A stretch of DNA of 64,000 bases from Candidatus Aminicenantes bacterium (GTDB lineage: Bacteria; Acidobacteriota; Aminicenantia; UBA2199): the NCBI GenBank assembly GCA_030610885.1, contig JAUWQW010000002.1, positions 7,375 through 71,374 of the forward strand. The letters are read 5' to 3'. Positions 3,184 through 51,980 of the stretch are shown one piece after another. Under the pieces are notes generated by a model that did not search any database, was not told where the DNA came from, and worked only from the letters and a program-made list of their open reading frames with translations. Both the position numbers and the translations under genes were made by a program. Each line of letters opens with the position of its first letter. Within the stretch, counting starts at the first letter, position 1.

Positions 3184-4625
3184 TATTCACCTAAATTTTC
3201 CCATTTTAGAATATGTTTTCTTGCTGCAAGTACCTCATCTAATCTTGAAACAGGGGTTGTATATGGAGCACCTTTAATGTATTCAGGGTCATTTTTTGCC
3301 TTTTCTAATATTTTTTTCATAACATCAATAAATTCGTCTATTGTTTCTTTACTTTCTGTTTCGGTTGGTTCAATCATCATTGCACCATGAACAATCAAAG
3401 GAAAATATATTGTAAATGGGTGTATCCCGTAATCAAGAAGACTCTTGGCAATATCAAGTGTTGTTACGTTTAGATTATTGTCAGAGAATACAACTTCATG
3501 TAAAGTTTTTGATTTATATGGTAGTTCAAGGAAAGGTTCAAGGCTTTTGCGAATATAATTTGCATTTAAAACAGCATCTTCTGCAACCTTTCTGATATAT
3601 TCTTTACCAATAGACATGAGATAAGTAAGAGCCTTTACTATTACTAAAAAATTGCCATAAAAATTCTTTACTCTTCCAATGCTCTTTTCTTCATGATATT
3701 TTACAAAATAGTTGTTATCTTTTTTATATACAATTGGTGTTGGTAAATACTTGATTAGATATGAAGCTACTCCAACAGGACCTGAACCTGGGCCACCTCC
3801 TCCATGTGGAGTAGAAAATGTTTTATGTAAATTTAAATGCAGTACATCAACTCCCAGGTCTCCAGGTCTGGCAATTCCCATAAATGCATTCATATTTGCT
3901 CCATCCATATATAATAAAGAGCCATTTTTATGAAGTATTTCAGATATTTTGCAGATGTTTTTTTCAAAAATTCCAAGAGTGTTTGGGTTTGTCATCATTA
4001 AAGCAGCAACATCTTCATTTAAATATTCTTTTAATGTCTCAACATCAATAATTCCATCCTTGTTTGAAGGTATCTCTATGATTTCATATCCTGCAAAATG
4101 TGCAGAAGAAGGATTTGTCCCATGTGCTGAGTCTGGTATAAGTATTGTTTTTCTTGGATCTCCTTTTGAGCTCAAGTATTTTTTAATTATCATCATTCCA
4201 GTAATTTCACCATGTGCTCCTGCAGATGGTGTGAGTGTAAATGCTGCCATTGCTGTAATCTTTTTTAGCCATTCCTCAAAAGTTGTTATAATCTCAAGGT
4301 TGCCTTCAACAAATTTATGAGGAGAGTATGGATGTGTGGAAAATTCTTCGAAATTGGCAATTTTCTCATTTATTTTTGGGTTGTATTTCATTGTACAGGA
4401 TCCCAAAGGATAAAAACCTGAGTCAACTGAATGATTTAATTGAGCAAGGTTAGTATAATGTCTTACGACTTCTACTTCAGAAAGTTGAGGAAAATCTTTT
4501 ATATCTTCTCTCAGTTTTTTTTTGTCTATTGTTATTAAGTCATCTGAAAATTCCGTTGGGGAAAAAGAATATCCAATTTTACCTTTTCTGCTTTTTTCAA
4601 AAATTGGTTTTTGTAATTTATTCAT
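3183..4625 (-). CDS. gcvPB: glycine dehydrogenase (decarboxylating) subunit 2, PLP-dependent
   Basis: 480 aa, length and composition of the P-protein C-terminal subunit, with LHLNLHKTFSTPHGGGGPG PLP-lysine region. Sits in the gcv gene cluster. Confidence 0.85.
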   Translation of the reverse strand: MNKLQKPIFEKSRKGKIGYSFSPTEFSDDLITIDKKKLREDIKDFPQLSEVEVVRHYTNLAQLNHSVDSGFYPLGSCTMKYNPKINEKIANFEEFSTHPYSPHKFVEGNLEIITTFEEWLKKITAMAAFTLTPSAGAHGEITGMMIIKKYLSSKGDPRKTILIPDSAHGTNPSSAHFAGYEIIEIPSNKDGIIDVETLKEYLNEDVAALMMTNPNTLGIFEKNICKISEILHKNGSLLYMDGANMNAFMGIARPGDLGVDVLHLNLHKTFSTPHGGGGPGSGPVGVASYLIKYLPTPIVYKKDNNYFVKYHEEKSIGRVKNFYGNFLVIVKALTYLMSIGKEYIRKVAEDAVLNANYIRKSLEPFLELPYKSKTLHEVVFSDNNLNVTTLDIAKSLLDYGIHPFTIYFPLIVHGAMMIEPTETESKETIDEFIDVMKKILEKAKNDPEYIKGAPYTTPVSRLDEVLAARKHILKWENLGE

Positions 4626-7628: not shown

Positions 7629-7658
7629 TTGACAAATAGTTAGTGTTTTATTTATAAT
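7629..7658 (+). promoter_or_regulatory. sigma70-type promoter (TTGACA-N18-TATAAT) for the 7729 gene
   Basis: TTGACA at 7629-7634 and TATAAT at 7653-7658, ~70 nt upstream of the ATG. Confidence 0.4.
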
Positions 7659-7728
7659 CTTTTTTTATATAGAGACTATTTTAGGATAAGTTATTATATA
7701 AAAGAGATACTTAAGTGGAGGAAATCTA

Positions 7729-30438: not shown

Positions 30439-30467
30439 AATATAATACTTTTGGGGTCAAATGTCAA
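30439..30467 (-). promoter_or_regulatory. sigma70-type promoter TTGACA-N17-TATATT driving the 29967-30413 / 29593-29949 genes (and possibly the Avs gene)
   Basis: Minus-strand TTGACA at 30467-30462 and TATATT at 30444-30439, followed by RBS GAGGTGA. Confidence 0.45.
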
Positions 30468-30580
30468 CATAAAAAATAAATAATTAAGATATCTCTTTTT
30501 AAAACAAATGAGAACGGTTGAAATGTTTAAAAATATAACAGCAGCTAAAGTTGAATATTTTTTTAAAACCAGATAAAATA

Positions 30581-49009: not shown

Positions 49010-50320
49010 TTAATATGTTTTTATCAGAAATAAAATTATTCCTTCTACCATATAAAAAAGACTTTCTAAGTGTTTTTCATCAAAATATTCAAGAGAGTGC
49101 TTAGGGTTATTTAACAATTTATGAATTTCGCTAACATTTCTACAGAAAAATTCGATAATTTTTTTATCCGATCTTCTTGAGTTTAATATATATTCAATTC
49201 TTTGACTTCTTGTAATCTTATCTTTTTCTTCAATGTTAAAATGTGCTTTCACTACATTATCAGGAGCAAGCTTCCGAGGGGTCCAATCCAAAAATTCTAT
49301 CATTGAAGTAGCACTTTGACGACATTTATCTGGATTATCTGAATACAAAGTCTCCCAAGCTCCTTCTCGCATTCTATCCAAATTTGGATCTATTGAAATT
49401 AATATCTTTTTCAACTTCCTATTTTTAACAGCTTCATTAGAAAAATCTATTTCAAAGTCTTTTATTTCAGGATGTTCTTTTCCTATTGGATATGGAATTG
49501 AATAAGATAAATTTTTATAAATTAAAGAAGAAGCTTCCAATTTAAAAAAATTTTTATCTATTATCAAAAGTTCCTTTTCTTTCATAATTTTTTGAATTCT
49601 CTCAAAAGAATAATCCTGAAAATATTTAGTAGTATTTAATACACTACTCATCAAAGGTTTTATGTCAGTCTTAAATATACTATTGAGAGATAAAGAATTC
49701 AAAGACGAAATTTTTGAGGATATCAACTGAGATGCTTGCAGGTTTTTGCTAAATAATGAAAAAGTTTCACTGAGCTTTTTTGTTGAACCTAAGAAAGAAT
49801 CATGTGTAGACTTTATCTTCCTTGTAATTTCGGCCATCGAAGAAAATTTAGACATCGGCTCTAATGCCATTTTCATTTCTTCTTTCATTTTAATAATAGG
49901 TTCTGATGTTATTCTCATGGTTTTAGCAATTTCTCCATAAGAAGGCCCTAATGCTCTTCTCATTACATCCATTTCTTTTATATGAGATTTATTCATTTCT
50001 CTTATCATTCTTTCTATTCCTGAATGATAAGGATATAATCTTTTTCGATCCTGCATTAGATTTTCCCCTAAAGAAATTGCAAAATTGCCTGTCATTTTTG
50101 ATAAATCTAATGCTTTTATCTCCTCTTTATATTTAGATGTTAAAAAATATCCTGCATCATTCTTTCTTACTAAATTTTCCTTTATCAACAATTTTATTGA
50201 ACGGTTGATAGATGAAGGGCTTTTATTTAAAGAATCAGCTATTCCCTTTTGAGTTCTAACTTTATTTCTTTCTAAAATATTAAGAATTCCTTTTTGAAGC
50301 TTTGATCTTCTTTTATTCAT
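49010..50320 (-). CDS. winged-HTH protein with C-terminal HEPN-like Rx5H motif (Abi-like candidate); start refined to ATG 50320 (MNKRRSKLQ) after GAGGT RBS
   Basis: N-terminal MarR/ArsR-like wHTH GILNILERNKVRTQKGIADSLNKSPSSINRSIKLLIKENLV. C-terminal CRNVSEIHK (R-x5-H). Confidence 0.45.
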   Translation of the reverse strand: MNKRRSKLQKGILNILERNKVRTQKGIADSLNKSPSSINRSIKLLIKENLVRKNDAGYFLTSKYKEEIKALDLSKMTGNFAISLGENLMQDRKRLYPYHSGIERMIREMNKSHIKEMDVMRRALGPSYGEIAKTMRITSEPIIKMKEEMKMALEPMSKFSSMAEITRKIKSTHDSFLGSTKKLSETFSLFSKNLQASQLISSKISSLNSLSLNSIFKTDIKPLMSSVLNTTKYFQDYSFERIQKIMKEKELLIIDKNFFKLEASSLIYKNLSYSIPYPIGKEHPEIKDFEIDFSNEAVKNRKLKKILISIDPNLDRMREGAWETLYSDNPDKCRQSATSMIEFLDWTPRKLAPDNVVKAHFNIEEKDKITRSQRIEYILNSRRSDKKIIEFFCRNVSEIHKLLNNPKHSLEYFDEKHLESLFYMVEGIILFLIKTY

Positions 50321-50620
50321 AATAACCTCATAAATTGATTTTAAGATTAACATTAAATCACAAATTACGGTTATTGTCAATACTATTGTGAATTAAAAGC
50401 GTAGTAAAATTTAAGAGCTTAAAGTGAACTTGGTGCTAGGCCTATATCTTTGACAATTAAAAAATAAAATTTATTATAAAAAACATTGCAAAAAACAAAA
50501 CCTGATCCCAAAATTTACATTTTAGTATGATTTCGTGTAGATTTTTTAATGAGGCAACGATACCTGTTTCATATAGATTTTTAATGATTCAACCCAAATA
50601 ATCAAGTAAGGCCATTTATG

Positions 50621-50683
50621 GGTGAGCAGGGTGACAGCAGGGTGACGGTGCATGACGGTGACAGCAGGGTGACGGTGCATGAC
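50621..50683. repeat. GC-rich 27-bp tandem repeat (GGTGACAGCAGGGTGACGGTGCATGAC x2 plus a partial unit)
   Basis: Units at 50630-50656 and 50657-50683; partial GGTGAGCAG at 50621-50629. Confidence 0.8.
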
Positions 50684-50726
50684 AATTTGACATTTTTGTT
50701 ATAAAAGATATTTATGCGTAAAAAAT

Positions 50727-50993
50727 AAAAGGGACGGTCTTTTGAAGTATTGATTTTCTTTCATTGTTTCTTTCTTCTCTTTGTATGAAAATACAAACTC
50801 CCTAAAGAACCAAAAGACAAATCGCTAAATAAATCAAATTCTATGACCTCCCCATATGTCAATCCACTTAAATCTTTTAATAATACCAAAAATTCTCCTC
50901 TCAGCCTTTTGCCTTCATGTGTAATGGTGTTTATATCTTCTAACTTTATTCCATACTTCTGTTCAAATTCAAATATTATTTTCTCAACAGGCT
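50727..50993. repeat. older partial tandem copy (~95% identity, ~263 bp) of the left inverted repeat plus the 3' end of the HUH transposase element
   Basis: 50731-50993 aligns with 51005-51267 at a constant offset of 274 bp, with a few substitutions and small indels. Confidence 0.75.
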
Positions 50994-51002
50994 CATAAAT
51001 AT

Positions 51003-51980
51003 AAGGGACGGTCTTTTGAAGTATTGATTTTTCTCACCGTTTCTTTCTTCTCTTTGTATGAAAATACAAACTCCCTAAAGAACCAAAAGACAAATCGCTA
51101 AATAAATCAAATTCTATGACCTCCCTATATGTCAATCCACCTAAATCTTTTAATAATACTAAAAATTCTCCTCTCATCCTCTTGCCTTCATGTGTAATGG
51201 TGTCTATATCTTCAAACTTTATTCCATACTTCTGTTGAAACTCAAATATTATTTTCTCAACAGGCTCAAAGTAGCGATCATCAGTCCGCTTGTTCTCTCT
51301 CACTGATCTCTCTTTCCTTCGATCATACTTCTTTTCTGCTTCCTTTATAAACTCTTCATCACCAAATATTTGCCCATACTTTGATCGTTTAACTACATAC
51401 TTCTGCTTATGAGCACTTTGTAAGGACATAAAAAAATTTTCTTTTATGCCAAAAAGATCTTCAACAAAATTCTTATCAATAAAACTCTTATTGTCTCCTG
51501 AGAAATATAATGATCCGCTTGACCAAGAATAGTTATCAAATCTATCCACAAGGTTTGCTCTTACTGGATTTTGAATAACATATACTATAGCCTGGACCAG
51601 ATATGGCTCATTCTGAATCAATGTTGATTTAAACCGATCCTGGAACACATACCCCTTTCCTCCTATAACCCTCCTGTAGTAAAATCCATACTGGCTATTC
51701 AGATTTCTCATAAACTCAGAGAGCCTACCACTACTATTTTGCAATAATAAATGGTAATGGTTGTCCATAATACAGTATGCCAATATGCGCATTCTGTAAA
51801 TCACTGACTTTTCAGCAAGTAATTCAATATATTTTGATTTCAGTTCTGCACTTGAGAATATTTTCTCTTCATTGACTCCCCTGTTCATAATATGGTGAAA
51901 AGCACCTTCCCATGTTAGTCGTGCATGTCTCATACTATAATTATAATATAATATTTCAATACTTCAAAAGACCGTCCCTT
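51003..51980 (-). mobile_element. small HUH-transposase element (IS200/RAYT-like) bounded by perfect 25-bp inverted repeats AAGGGACGGTCTTTTGAAGTATTGA (51003-51027 / 51956-51980)
   Basis: Inverted repeats read directly; a single HUH transposase ORF lies between them. Confidence 0.65.
51034..51933 (-). CDS. HUH Y1 transposase (IS200/IS605 TnpA / REP-associated tyrosine transposase-like) with C-terminal extension
   Basis: HUH motif in CIMDNHYHLLLQ; N-terminal ~140 aa fits the Y1 transposase fold pattern; 299 aa. Confidence 0.65.
   Translation of the reverse strand: MRHARLTWEGAFHHIMNRGVNEEKIFSSAELKSKYIELLAEKSVIYRMRILAYCIMDNHYHLLLQNSSGRLSEFMRNLNSQYGFYYRRVIGGKGYVFQDRFKSTLIQNEPYLVQAIVYVIQNPVRANLVDRFDNYSWSSGSLYFSGDNKSFIDKNFVEDLFGIKENFFMSLQSAHKQKYVVKRSKYGQIFGDEEFIKEAEKKYDRRKERSVRENKRTDDRYFEPVEKIIFEFQQKYGIKFEDIDTITHEGKRMRGEFLVLLKDLGGLTYREVIEFDLFSDLSFGSLGSLYFHTKRRKKR

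Follow-up and report, generated by a model that had tools for sequence, protein, structure and literature searches.

Genes that resemble RAYT genes and are flanked by terminal inverted repeats (TIRs) were named TIRYTs, and the units that they form TIRtrons, in 2013 (Di Nocera et al., BMC Genomics 14:522; PMC3733652). The majority of the TIRs published there, not all, share the sequence GGGGWSAS, and TIR families are found as singles, dimers or clusters. TIRYTs were classified in 2018, when Quentin et al. (BMC Genomics 19:475; PMC6006769) equated them with subclass 2.1 of the TnpA_Y1 transposases, a subclass that has a C-terminal Bac_DnaA_C or helix-turn-helix (HTH) domain (HTH_23 or HTH_28-like) and a conserved Ser motif. 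Lineages related to the Acidobacteria have many members of this class. The RAYT groups of Bertels et al. (2017) do not address TIR-flanked members.

Two other systems with HUH/Y1 enzymes are relevant for comparison. RAYTs, as in E. coli TnpA_REP, are proteins of about 150-190 aa encoded by single-copy genes and devoid of an HTH domain, and their REPs are GTAG-tagged hairpins read as folded ssDNA. The TnpA proteins of IS200/IS605 elements (IS608, PDB 2VHG; ISDra2) have about 130-155 aa and no DNA-binding extension, and the ends of these elements are asymmetric subterminal hairpins with guide sequences instead of TIRs. Insertion of IS200/IS605 elements occurs 3' of a short specific sequence.

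Here we describe a 978-bp element from a Candidatus Aminicenantes bacterium, located in a 64-kb stretch of DNA (hereafter the window), where it is the sole locus of its kind. We consider it probable that positions 51003-51980 constitute a TIRtron, that is, one TIRYT gene bracketed by perfect 25-bp TIRs. As the class has already been described, the element is a further member of it, present in several copies in Aminicenantes.

Architecture of the element and its inverted repeats

The following features were delineated at the locus:

51003..51980, minus strand: whole element, 978 bp, in the order TIR, promoter-like site, Y1 transposase gene, TIR
51956..51980, minus strand: upstream (left-end) TIR, which reads AAGGGACGGTCTTTTGAAGTATTGA on the gene strand and starts 47 nt ahead of the ATG
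51003..51027, plus strand: downstream (right-end) TIR, 6 nt past the stop codon
51034..51933, minus strand: TIRYT gene, 299 aa, the single ORF between the TIRs, containing DNHYHLLLQ
51940..51967, minus strand: sigma-70-like promoter candidate, with the -35 box TTGAAG within the TIR, a 16-nt spacer and the -10 box TATAAT
50723..50996, plus strand: older unit of a 274-bp tandem duplication, comprising a second right-end TIR and the last 241 bp of the gene
50620..50683, plus strand: GC-rich array GGGTGAGCA-GGGTGACAGCA-GGGTGACGGTGCATGAC-GGTGACAGCA-GGGTGACGGTGCATGAC, two 27-mers and a partial unit

An earlier note on this DNA had described perfect 25-bp inverted flanks around a single ORF with an HUH motif of the IS200/RAYT superfamily and a C-terminal extension of about 150 aa, and all of these features were confirmed. 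The two 25-nt arms of the element are 100% complementary, the ORF product matches Pfam Y1_Tnp (E 6.7e-9), and the extension is present and conserved across the protein family. Exact copies of the 25-mer occur in the window at 50729-50753 and 51003-51027 on the plus strand and at 51956-51980 on the minus strand, and none appeared in any of 100 shuffles. The promoter candidate agrees with 10/12 consensus positions; this is a consensus match only, and sigma-70-like sites in the region are not above chance (10 observed vs 9.2 in shuffles). No intrinsic terminator was found. The single Rfam match between 50200 and 52200, to RAGATH-30 inside the gene, scored below threshold (21.5 bits vs 59.5, E 0.37) and was taken as a chance match.

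TIRs of 23-32 bp are present in 8/9 family loci, the window included, and the arms are perfect inverted copies at 7 other family loci as well. These TIRs start with (G)GGG[AT]CGGT and lie 44-59 nt before the ATG, and the core GGGACGGT is common to the window and its homologues; both the tip, (G)GGGWCGGT, and its distance to the start codon are conserved between proteins of 47-66% identity. The tip AGGGACGG of the window element agrees with the published GGGGWSAS at 6/8 positions; the homologue tips GGGGACGG agree at 7/8, consistently with G instead of A at position 7, and a second element type (L037/L005), with the tip GGGGTCAA, also reaches 7/8. The upstream TIR is invariant in all five full copies of the element that we located. 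Across these copies, 1/50 TIR columns vary as against 15.4% of third codon positions, a figure biased by the retrieval of the related copies through an exact match to the 25-mer; when only the unselected partner TIRs are counted, 1/25 columns vary (P about 0.09 vs the third-position rate).

No excess of hairpin structure was detected in either flank on either strand (fold z -0.37 to +0.03 vs shuffles), the TIRs of three homologues likewise did not fold beyond shuffles, and a GTAG or CGTC tag is absent from the flank sequence. Because its flanks do not fold as hairpins, the element is neither a classical IS200/IS605 element nor a REP/REPIN doublet. The remark in the earlier note that inverted flanks are atypical for IS200/IS605 was upheld, and its proposal that they behave as a REP pair or REPIN-like doublet was not. 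Nor does the TIR resemble the DnaA box TTWTNCACA, and the TIRs of the class are likewise unlike that box (PMC6006769).

The transposase and its copies in Aminicenantes

The 299-aa protein has the RAYT/IS200 HUH fold, with the HUH motif H59-Y60-H61 and the catalytic tyrosine Y118. The catalytic tyrosine, which the earlier note had left for alignment, is invariant in the family and aligns with Y115 of E. coli TnpA_REP (PDB 4ER8), which matches the catalytic core best, in structure as in sequence; the HUH motif and Tyr are equivalently placed in both proteins, and both have an NPV motif after the Tyr. The conserved Ser motif after the catalytic Tyr region, a trait of subclass 2.1, is present as Y135-x-WSS, in which Y135, W137, S138 and S139 are invariant in 41 sequences. 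It is followed by a middle region (about 140-205) and a predicted C-terminal HTH domain (about 225-298). By its predicted fold, this domain, conserved family-wide, resembles the dsDNA-binding domain IV of DnaA. None of the 41 family members has a Pfam match to Bac_DnaA_C, and no sequence-profile match to DnaA domain IV (PDB 1J1V, 3PVP) was detectable; therefore the HTH assignment rests on predicted structure. Homologues of the protein number roughly 490. The NCBIfam RAYT model REP_Tyr_transpos gives the protein 66.9 bits, under its curated cut-off of 80, and relatives are labeled 'REP element-mobilizing transposase RayT' at JGI; for such 300-aa proteins the 'RayT' label in genome annotation is imprecise.

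Compared by published descriptions, the element matches the TIRYT/TIRtron class, which has been equated with subclass 2.1. Between TIRs with a G-rich tip, which also occur singly and in clusters, it encodes an HUH/Y1 protein that resembles RAYTs, is about 300 aa long and has a Ser motif past the catalytic region and a predicted C-terminal HTH. It differs in three respects, namely the mismatch of its tip (G)GGGACGGT to GGGGWSAS at position 7, the absence of a Bac_DnaA_C match in Pfam, the likeness being structural only, and the presence of the whole unit in multiple copies with intact ORFs in at least one metagenome-assembled genome (MAG), whereas the published accounts stress TIR repeats.

Five intact full copies were found, in the window and at the loci L001, L006, L008 and L014, which are 978-981 bp long and 95-97.5% identical. 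Homology between the window and each of the four others ends no more than 10 nt from the TIR tips on both sides, the flanking sequences being unrelated, and dN/dS among the full copies is 0.12-0.22. The whole unit thus exists in at least five copies with intact ORFs under purifying selection and in unrelated contexts. Two of these copies, with different flanks, are in one MAG (L008, L014). In MAG CSMAG_2431, full copies number at least two, and a truncated copy and a left end that lies at the edge of a contig are also present.

As the earlier note had suggested checking, the 25-mer was sought elsewhere, and it occurs both around the gene and alone: it was located in 13 contigs of 5 MAGs and in 4 metagenome stretches, and lies by itself in intergenic DNA at L002, L004, L007, L011 and L018. 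Only a few solo 25-mers were counted per MAG, and these counts are lower bounds, the MAGs being incomplete; every related copy is from a fragmented MAG. Besides the full unit, Aminicenantes MAGs contain TIRs on their own, copies with internal deletions and tandem TIR-tip arrays, the arrays being in L006, beside the right end, and in L009. In L037, a different TIRYT element occupies the slot downstream of the neighbouring CarboxypepD_reg gene; in L005/L012 the occupant of the slot is a type-1 element, which this second type interrupts.

None of the five full copies has a target-site duplication or direct repeats at its junctions. Their left end is always preceded by AAAA(A). As no empty site was recovered, this run may be part of the element itself, and the ends given here are putative, as is transposition. 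Scans of viral contigs with the 25-mer and with the protein family returned nothing, and a tblastn search of plasmids yielded nothing closer than distant matches in the core domain, none of which exceeded 37% identity. The distant homologues P0008 and P0109 are found in one conserved context in many samples, as expected of domesticated single-copy genes.

Alternative readings and a proposed model of transposition

The locus could also be read as a REPtron, in which a domesticated single-copy RAYT between two inverted REPs, a REPIN-like doublet, disperses the REPs and not itself. Several observations are in keeping with this: the closest solved relative is the RAYT TnpA_REP, the JGI label names RayT, inverted copies of a short repeat flank the gene, the flank also occurs solo in intergenic DNA, and some of the distant homologues have one copy whose context is fixed. 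We nevertheless regard this reading as unlikely, given that the flanks are not palindromic and have fold energies equal to those of shuffles, that they have no GTAG or CGTC tag, that the score with the RAYT model is below its cut-off, that the gene is multi-copy along with its flanks, unlike RAYTs, and that a handful of solo copies was found rather than tens to hundreds.

With IS200/IS605 the element shares the HUH/Y1 fold, the lack of a target-site duplication and the multi-copy state, but that it is an ordinary insertion sequence of this family with incidental inverted flanks seems very improbable: its TIRs are perfect and unfolded, unlike the asymmetric hairpin ends of that family, their position and tip are conserved across homologues of 47-66% identity, and the protein, about double TnpA_IS200 in size, has a conserved extra domain. 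DDE elements and MITEs typically show perfect 25-bp TIRs, and derivatives of them that are solo or short. The further alternative is accordingly that the TIRs are those of a DDE-type element or MITE in which the Y1 gene lies by chance or through capture, and that another transposase drives movement in trans. We give this explanation almost no credence, as the element has no DDE gene, no target-site duplication accompanies any of the five full copies, and the TIR tip varies together with the Y1 gene in seven distinct lineages, at a fixed spacing of 44-59 nt.

Under the TIRtron assignment, a mechanism can be proposed. Since no biochemical study of any TIRYT was found in the searchable literature, every step of the model is patterned on IS608 and TnpA_REP. 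The HTH domain would bring the enzyme to each TIR by binding its inner, double-stranded part, which would carry the -35 box of the gene's own promoter candidate, and autoregulation would therefore be likely. The HUH/Tyr centre would nick one strand at or next to the conserved tip with formation of a 5'-phosphotyrosine link, as in IS608 and TnpA_REP; on a single strand, the TIRs could pair as a 25-bp panhandle that unites both cleavage sites. Both ends would then be joined, and the unit, or a TIR alone, re-inserted without target duplication. A further proposal can be put forward only tentatively: TIRYT units may be a genuine and still active family of autonomous insertion sequences, whose HUH/Y1 nuclease is aimed by a DnaA-domain-IV-like dsDNA-binding domain that reads TIRs and not ssDNA hairpins. 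To our knowledge, such hybrid end recognition, in which an HUH/Y1 enzyme is combined with a dsDNA-binding domain on TIRs, has been described for no family of insertion sequences. If the autonomous reading is true, the arrays in L006 and L009, the 274-bp duplication and possibly the 27-mer array would be traces left by recurrent nicking and rejoining of the right end.

The locus and its relatives provide a compact, well-defined test system: a 978-bp unit, found several times in differing contexts, has perfect ends of 25 bp and an intact gene on which purifying selection acts, and its tip, (G)GGGWCGGT, is kept between proteins only about half identical. Two questions are thereby made testable: whether RAYT-like enzymes with an HTH domain can move their own gene, and how an HUH enzyme uses inverted repeats that are not hairpins.

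The tandem duplication and the GC-rich repeat beside the element

Upstream of the right end by window coordinate, the earlier note had reported a repeat of the left flank and the gene end at about 95% identity, and this was confirmed by two direct repeats, 50755-50995 / 51028-51268 (241 nt, 95% identical) and 50723-50757 / 50997-51031 (a 35-nt block, 97% identical), which together are a 273-274-bp tandem duplication that includes the TIR on the left by coordinate. The remnant at 50755-50995 differs from the gene at 13 of its 241 nt, 5 of the changes being synonymous and 8 non-synonymous, stays in frame and lacks an ATG of its own; it is a pseudogene fragment encoding the HTH domain, recognized by the family profile in hmmsearch with E 7e-32. 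The extra right-end TIR and 241 bp at 50723-50996 would have arisen later, by tandem duplication of 274 bp, and be decaying now. The suggestion that this stump is the remainder of another complete element, which had inserted in tandem and was later mostly deleted, stood as a possible though not a likely origin: tandem or nested TIRYT arrangements are known in L005/L012, and the stump keeps an intact right-end TIR, but the repeated sequence forms a single uninterrupted block of 273-274 bp, the duplication seems to extend about 6 nt past the TIR (AAATAA / AAATAT, 5/6), and beyond the other end of the element there is no 5' half that could derive from an older copy. Because of these outer nucleotides and the missing older 5' part, the simple duplication fits equally well or better, the two origins being not fully separable from one locus. 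An origin by nested insertion was rejected, there being no matching 5' half beyond the other TIR.

The GC-rich tandem repeat is present as noted earlier, in two copies of the 27-mer GGTGACAGCAGGGTGACGGTGCATGAC at 50630-50656 and 50657-50683, where local GC is 0.38-0.40 vs about 0.21-0.36 around it. A G-quadruplex reading of the array was dropped, as it has four GGG tracts but one loop is 24 nt. The idea that the unit is a cognate REP-like target was abandoned: the 27-mer shares only GACGGT with the 25-mer, and no copies of it were found in the rest of the window, in 14 related loci or in the metagenome collection. The array is not part of the repeat family of the 978-bp element. We rather favour the view that the array has nothing to do with the element and is either a local minisatellite or a fragment of foreign GC-rich DNA, in line with its uniqueness in the searched sets, the short shared GACGGT, the lack of folding beyond shuffles (z +1.3 and +1.9) and the lack of any Rfam match. 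Against this view, the array contains GGTGACGGTGC, a 10/11 match to the TIR tip GGGGACGGTGC of L023 (score reached by 66/3000 shuffles), and GGGT[GA]CGGTGCATGAC, comparable to the TIR GGGTCGGTGCTTGAC of L027 (29/3000), a weak resemblance to TIR cores of other TIRYT lineages with p about 0.01-0.02 in a comparison made post hoc. In addition, TIR-tip arrays adjoin a right end in L006, and the 27-mer array is oriented in the same way as the adjacent right-end TIRs. Judged by these sequence likenesses, the array may at most be a relic TIR-core cluster of another TIRYT lineage.

Architecture of the transposase unit

The element of 978 bp (window positions 51003-51980, minus strand) consists of a single HUH transposase gene bracketed by perfect 25-bp inverted repeats, just as the earlier note had read it from the sequence. 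We call the repeat upstream of the start codon the left end, and that downstream of the stop codon the right end. The region contains the following features:

50630-50683: GC-rich 27-mer GGTGACAGCAGGGTGACGGTGCATGAC, two tandem units, with a partial unit before them, from 50620
50729-50753, plus strand: third exact copy of the 25-mer
51003-51027, plus strand: right-end repeat, exact 25-mer AAGGGACGGTCTTTTGAAGTATTGA
51034-51933, minus strand: single ORF between the inverted copies, 299 aa, containing DNHYHLLLQ
51956-51980, minus strand: left-end repeat, exact reverse complement of the 25-mer

With up to three mismatches allowed, neither the rest of the 64-kb window nor 100 shuffled versions held a further match to the 25-mer. 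The left-end repeat includes a -35-like TTGAAG hexamer with a TATAAT 16 nt away, a promoter candidate by consensus match; TTGAAA or TTGAC(A/T) is present at a similar place in three related loci (L023, L024, and L027) and in a second element type of the same superfamily.

In the 299-aa protein, Pfam detects only Y1_Tnp (E 6.7e-9); the protein's score against the NCBIfam RAYT model, 66.9 bits, is under the cut-off of 80. Of 493 relatives obtained from a database search, most are about 300 aa long and align along their full length with 46-57% identity; Aminicenantes and Acidobacteriota MAGs account for many of them, and several are labelled 'RayT' by JGI. Residues H59, H61, Y118, N122, P123, Y135, W137, S138, and S139 are invariant in an alignment of 41 sequences. 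The first match in a PDB profile search is E. coli TnpA_REP (4ER8), where Y118 aligns with Y115 in 'VDYIYINP', which we take from that structure to be the catalytic tyrosine. The tyrosine whose absence would have spoken against the proposed IS200/RAYT-type HUH enzyme is thus in place. The AlphaFold model built on the family alignment has a pLDDT of 88.7, and we regard the fold and the catalytic residues as established. In an exhaustive HMMER search, clusters at 50% identity numbered 97 at E <= 1e-30 and 9,858 at E <= 1e-10; the family is a modest clade within a very large superfamily.

Terminal inverted repeats and class membership

The flanks had been interpreted as a REP pair, or REPIN-like doublet. 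They are instead terminal inverted repeats (TIRs): hairpin folding of both flanks on both strands gave no excess over dinucleotide shuffles (z -0.37 to +0.03), and the flanks of three homologues likewise fold no better than shuffles. At seven other family loci, whose proteins are 95, 66, 58, 56, 53, 49, and 47% identical to the window protein, the gene lies between inverted repeats of 23-32 bp (97-100% complementary where measured) that begin 44-59 nt 5' of the ATG and end 25-61 nt 3' of the stop codon, except in L020, where the right repeat terminates within the coding tail. At one family locus, L035, no bracketing inverted repeats were seen. The outer tips are similar across loci, while the inner parts are divergent.

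Outer tips of the inverted repeats
Window: AAGGGACGGTCTTTTG
L024: GGGACGGTCTTTTG
L020: TGGGGACGGTCTTTTG
L025: ATGGGGACGGTCTTTTA
L022: GGGGACGGTCGTTTA
L023: AAAGGGGACGGTGCGTTG
L027: GGGTCGGTGCTTGAC

RAYT-like genes with TIRs instead of REPs were named TIRYTs (TIR-associated tyrosine transposases), and their units TIRtrons, by Di Nocera et al. 2013 (PMC3733652). These authors described many TIRs as sharing the motif GGGGWSAS, found TIR families as single, dimeric or clustered copies, and saw one Acidobacteria group that was sharply defined. In the study of Quentin et al. 2018 (PMC6006769), 20 of the 26 TIRYTs fall in TnpA_Y1 subclass 2.1, whose members end in a Bac_DnaA_C/HTH-like domain, carry a short Ser motif downstream of the catalytic region, and have no REPs in their vicinity. 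The window element has the features of this class with two reservations: its tip matches GGGGWSAS at 6 of 8 positions (7 of 8 in the homologues), differing at position 7, and its HTH assignment is structural only, because Pfam finds no Bac_DnaA_C in any family member examined. As a RAYT or REPtron, the element fails on hairpin REPs, on the curated score, and on single copy; as an IS200/IS605 element, it fails on subterminal hairpins, which it lacks, and on the absence of TIRs, which it has. The earlier interpretation is close but misfiled, and the element is a member of the already described TIRYT/TIRtron class. In the literature searched, these two studies are the only ones to mention TIRYTs or TIRtrons, and neither is experimental. 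With its clean architecture and its IS-like copy behaviour in Aminicenantes, the element would be a good subject for the first biochemistry on the class.

In L020, the downstream repeat (3899-3942) codes for the C-terminal tail of P0008, the 58%-identical homologue. Its source, MAG_102, also has two solo window-type 25-mers (L004 and L007); after each of them come AAT, some 10 nt, and then a T-run. Extra partial tips AAAGGGAC, for example AAAGGGACAAAGGGACGG, lie directly outside the repeats in several loci (L023 2940-2960 and 3966-3986; L005 1332-1345; L007 outside the TIR at 7651-7675); the insertion target may resemble the repeat tip, or end-processing may have recurred.

Copies and turnover in related genomes

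The flank is not unique to this locus: exact copies of the 25-mer are present on 13 contigs from five MAGs (four Aminicenantes or unclassified, one labelled Thermodesulfobacteriota) and in four metagenome stretches. Full units were identified in L001 (with L016 and L017 at the same site), L006, L008, and L014, where homology to the window breaks off no more than 10 nt from the repeat tips on either side and the flanking genes are unrelated; L008 and L014 are from one MAG and have different flanks. With lengths of 978-981 bp, the five full copies are 95.2-97.5% identical, and all have intact ORFs of 299-300 aa; dN/dS is 0.12-0.22. These are multi-copy units under purifying selection. Variable columns amount to 1 of 50 in the repeats, 3 of 22 in the spacer, and 15.4% of third codon positions, a count biased by one repeat per locus being chosen by the 25-mer search itself; for the partner repeats only, the excess conservation is weak by itself (P about 0.09). 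Tip conservation across lineages is the stronger argument.

The strongest sign of insertion turnover here comes from one intergenic slot. The right-hand neighbour in the window encodes a CarboxypepD_reg protein, and downstream of its orthologue in L037 (71% identical) lies a different element of the same superfamily, found at these positions:

L037 3530-3843: second TIRYT type
L005 800-1010: second TIRYT type
L012: same arrangement as L005

Its protein begins with MARPLRIQYEGALYHV and is 35% identical to the window protein across the first 81 residues; its upstream repeat AGGGGTCAAATCTTTATAATTGACA contains a -35-like hexamer, and its tip GGGGTCAA matches GGGGWSAS at 7 of 8 positions. A window-type element in L005 and L012 keeps its left end and first 320 bp, where it is directly interrupted by the second type, the tip of the latter being tandemly doubled (TAAGGGGTCAAAT). 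Occupants of the slot thus differ between related genomes, and no empty site was recovered.

The junctions of full copies show no visible direct target duplications; AAAA(A) always precedes the upstream end, and AT(CT) often follows the downstream end. Solo repeats occur in L002 (two), L003, L004, L007, L011, L013, and L018. Extra tips directly outside the ends are found in L006 (2135-2229, right end), with three tandem 16-nt units AAGGGACGGTCTTTTG(AA)CATAGGT, and in L009 (2053-2097, left end), with one AAGGGACGGTCTTTTG. In a deletion variant (L015 317-360), the right-end repeat is joined to the counterpart of window 51294-51330, about 270 bp of the gene 3' end (HTH domain) being lost between TTCTCTCAC microhomologies.

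The conserved tip and spacing and the lack of target duplications are observed, unlike the steps of the mechanism that we propose. By analogy with DnaA domain IV, the HTH would dock on the double-stranded inner repeat; because docking at the left end would overlap the promoter -35, autoregulation via this TIR is possible. As in IS608 and TnpA_REP chemistry, the HUH/Tyr centre would cut one strand at the conserved tip via a 5'-phosphotyrosine intermediate, after which joining of the ends would be followed by re-insertion of the unit, or of a lone repeat, without duplication. In single-stranded DNA, both repeats could pair as a 25-bp panhandle, juxtaposing the two sites, and tandem tip arrays could arise where an end is nicked and rejoined several times.

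Several partial occurrences were also observed. In L002 (359-866), two 25-mers in direct orientation, 483 bp apart, surround a small hydrophobic-protein ORF whose last codons and TGA stop lie, by eye, within the second 25-mer (...DLVKKRDGLLKY*); inner sequence beside one copy recurs in L011 (68 nt, 94%). Short right-end remnants, comprising the repeat and about 30-50 bp of the gene 3' end (L003 6150-6266, L013 3210-3326, and L011 1139-1240), are fused to a common sequence of about 65-125 bp containing CTTGAATTTTAAAACTT(G/T)ACA that is repeated within and between MAGs; possible readings are a non-autonomous derivative and a common repeat in the neighbourhood. In L010 (1-123), a 2-kb contig binned as Thermodesulfobacteriota, the element's right end and final 121 bp lie at the contig edge with 95% identity, reflecting either cross-phylum transfer or a binning error.

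Repeats beside the element

The adjacent stump (50723-50996) had been viewed as the remainder of an earlier tandem copy. The repeat of about 95% stands: 50723-50996 and 50997-51270 form a tandem duplication of 273-274 bp, 95% identical across 241 nt and 97% across 35 nt around the repeat, and the stump retains the last 78 codons in frame (13 mismatches in 241 nt) without an ATG. Its origin from two tandem elements followed by a deletion is possible, but past the other end there is no 5' half of an older copy. The simplest reading of the stump is that the right end plus 241 bp was duplicated locally in tandem, because the repeat unit is one contiguous block, about six nt outside the repeat look doubled too (AAATAA versus AAATAT), and that 5' half is missing.

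The 27-mer array, with a GC content of 0.38-0.40 versus about 0.21-0.36 in its surroundings, was suggested as a cognate REP-like target. It has only GACGGT in common with the 25-mer, and no other copies were found in the window, 14 related loci, or the metagenome collection; it is not the cognate repeat. Oriented like the adjacent right-end repeats, it contains GGTGACGGTGC, a 10/11 match to the L023 tip GGGGACGGTGC, and GGGT[GA]CGGTGCATGAC, compared with the L027 repeat GGGTCGGTGCTTGAC. In this post hoc comparison, the observed score was reached by 66 of 3000 composition-preserving shuffles and by 29 of 3000 that kept the tandem structure. The resemblance is suggestive, and the array might be a relic TIR-tip cluster of another lineage, a reading we hold as less likely than not.

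Just upstream of the array, window 50531-50593 contains a 35-36-bp direct repeat (TTTCGTGTAGATTTTTTAATGAGGCAAC... / TTTCATATAGATTTTTAATGATTCAAC...). A 47-nt stretch 85% identical to it lies in L013 (3416-3462), about 90 nt outside the solo TIR and in the opposite relative orientation to the window. Farther away, intergenic TTTTGGGGTCAAATGTCAACA (30450-30470) has the 10-nt tip GGGGTCAAAT in common with the second TIRYT type, and GGGGTCAAA occurs twice in the window (there and at about 23047, minus strand) versus 0.3 expected; the full 25-nt repeat of this type is absent from the window even with three mismatches allowed, and the site may be a solo repeat relic. The left neighbour (49010-50380, minus strand) encodes a 456-aa protein whose only match is a weak, Sta1/Lrs14-like one to a winged helix at the N-terminus (E 4e-4 to 9e-3, below cut-offs); the TTG listed as its start probably lies too far upstream, and MNKRRSK... 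looks like the real one.
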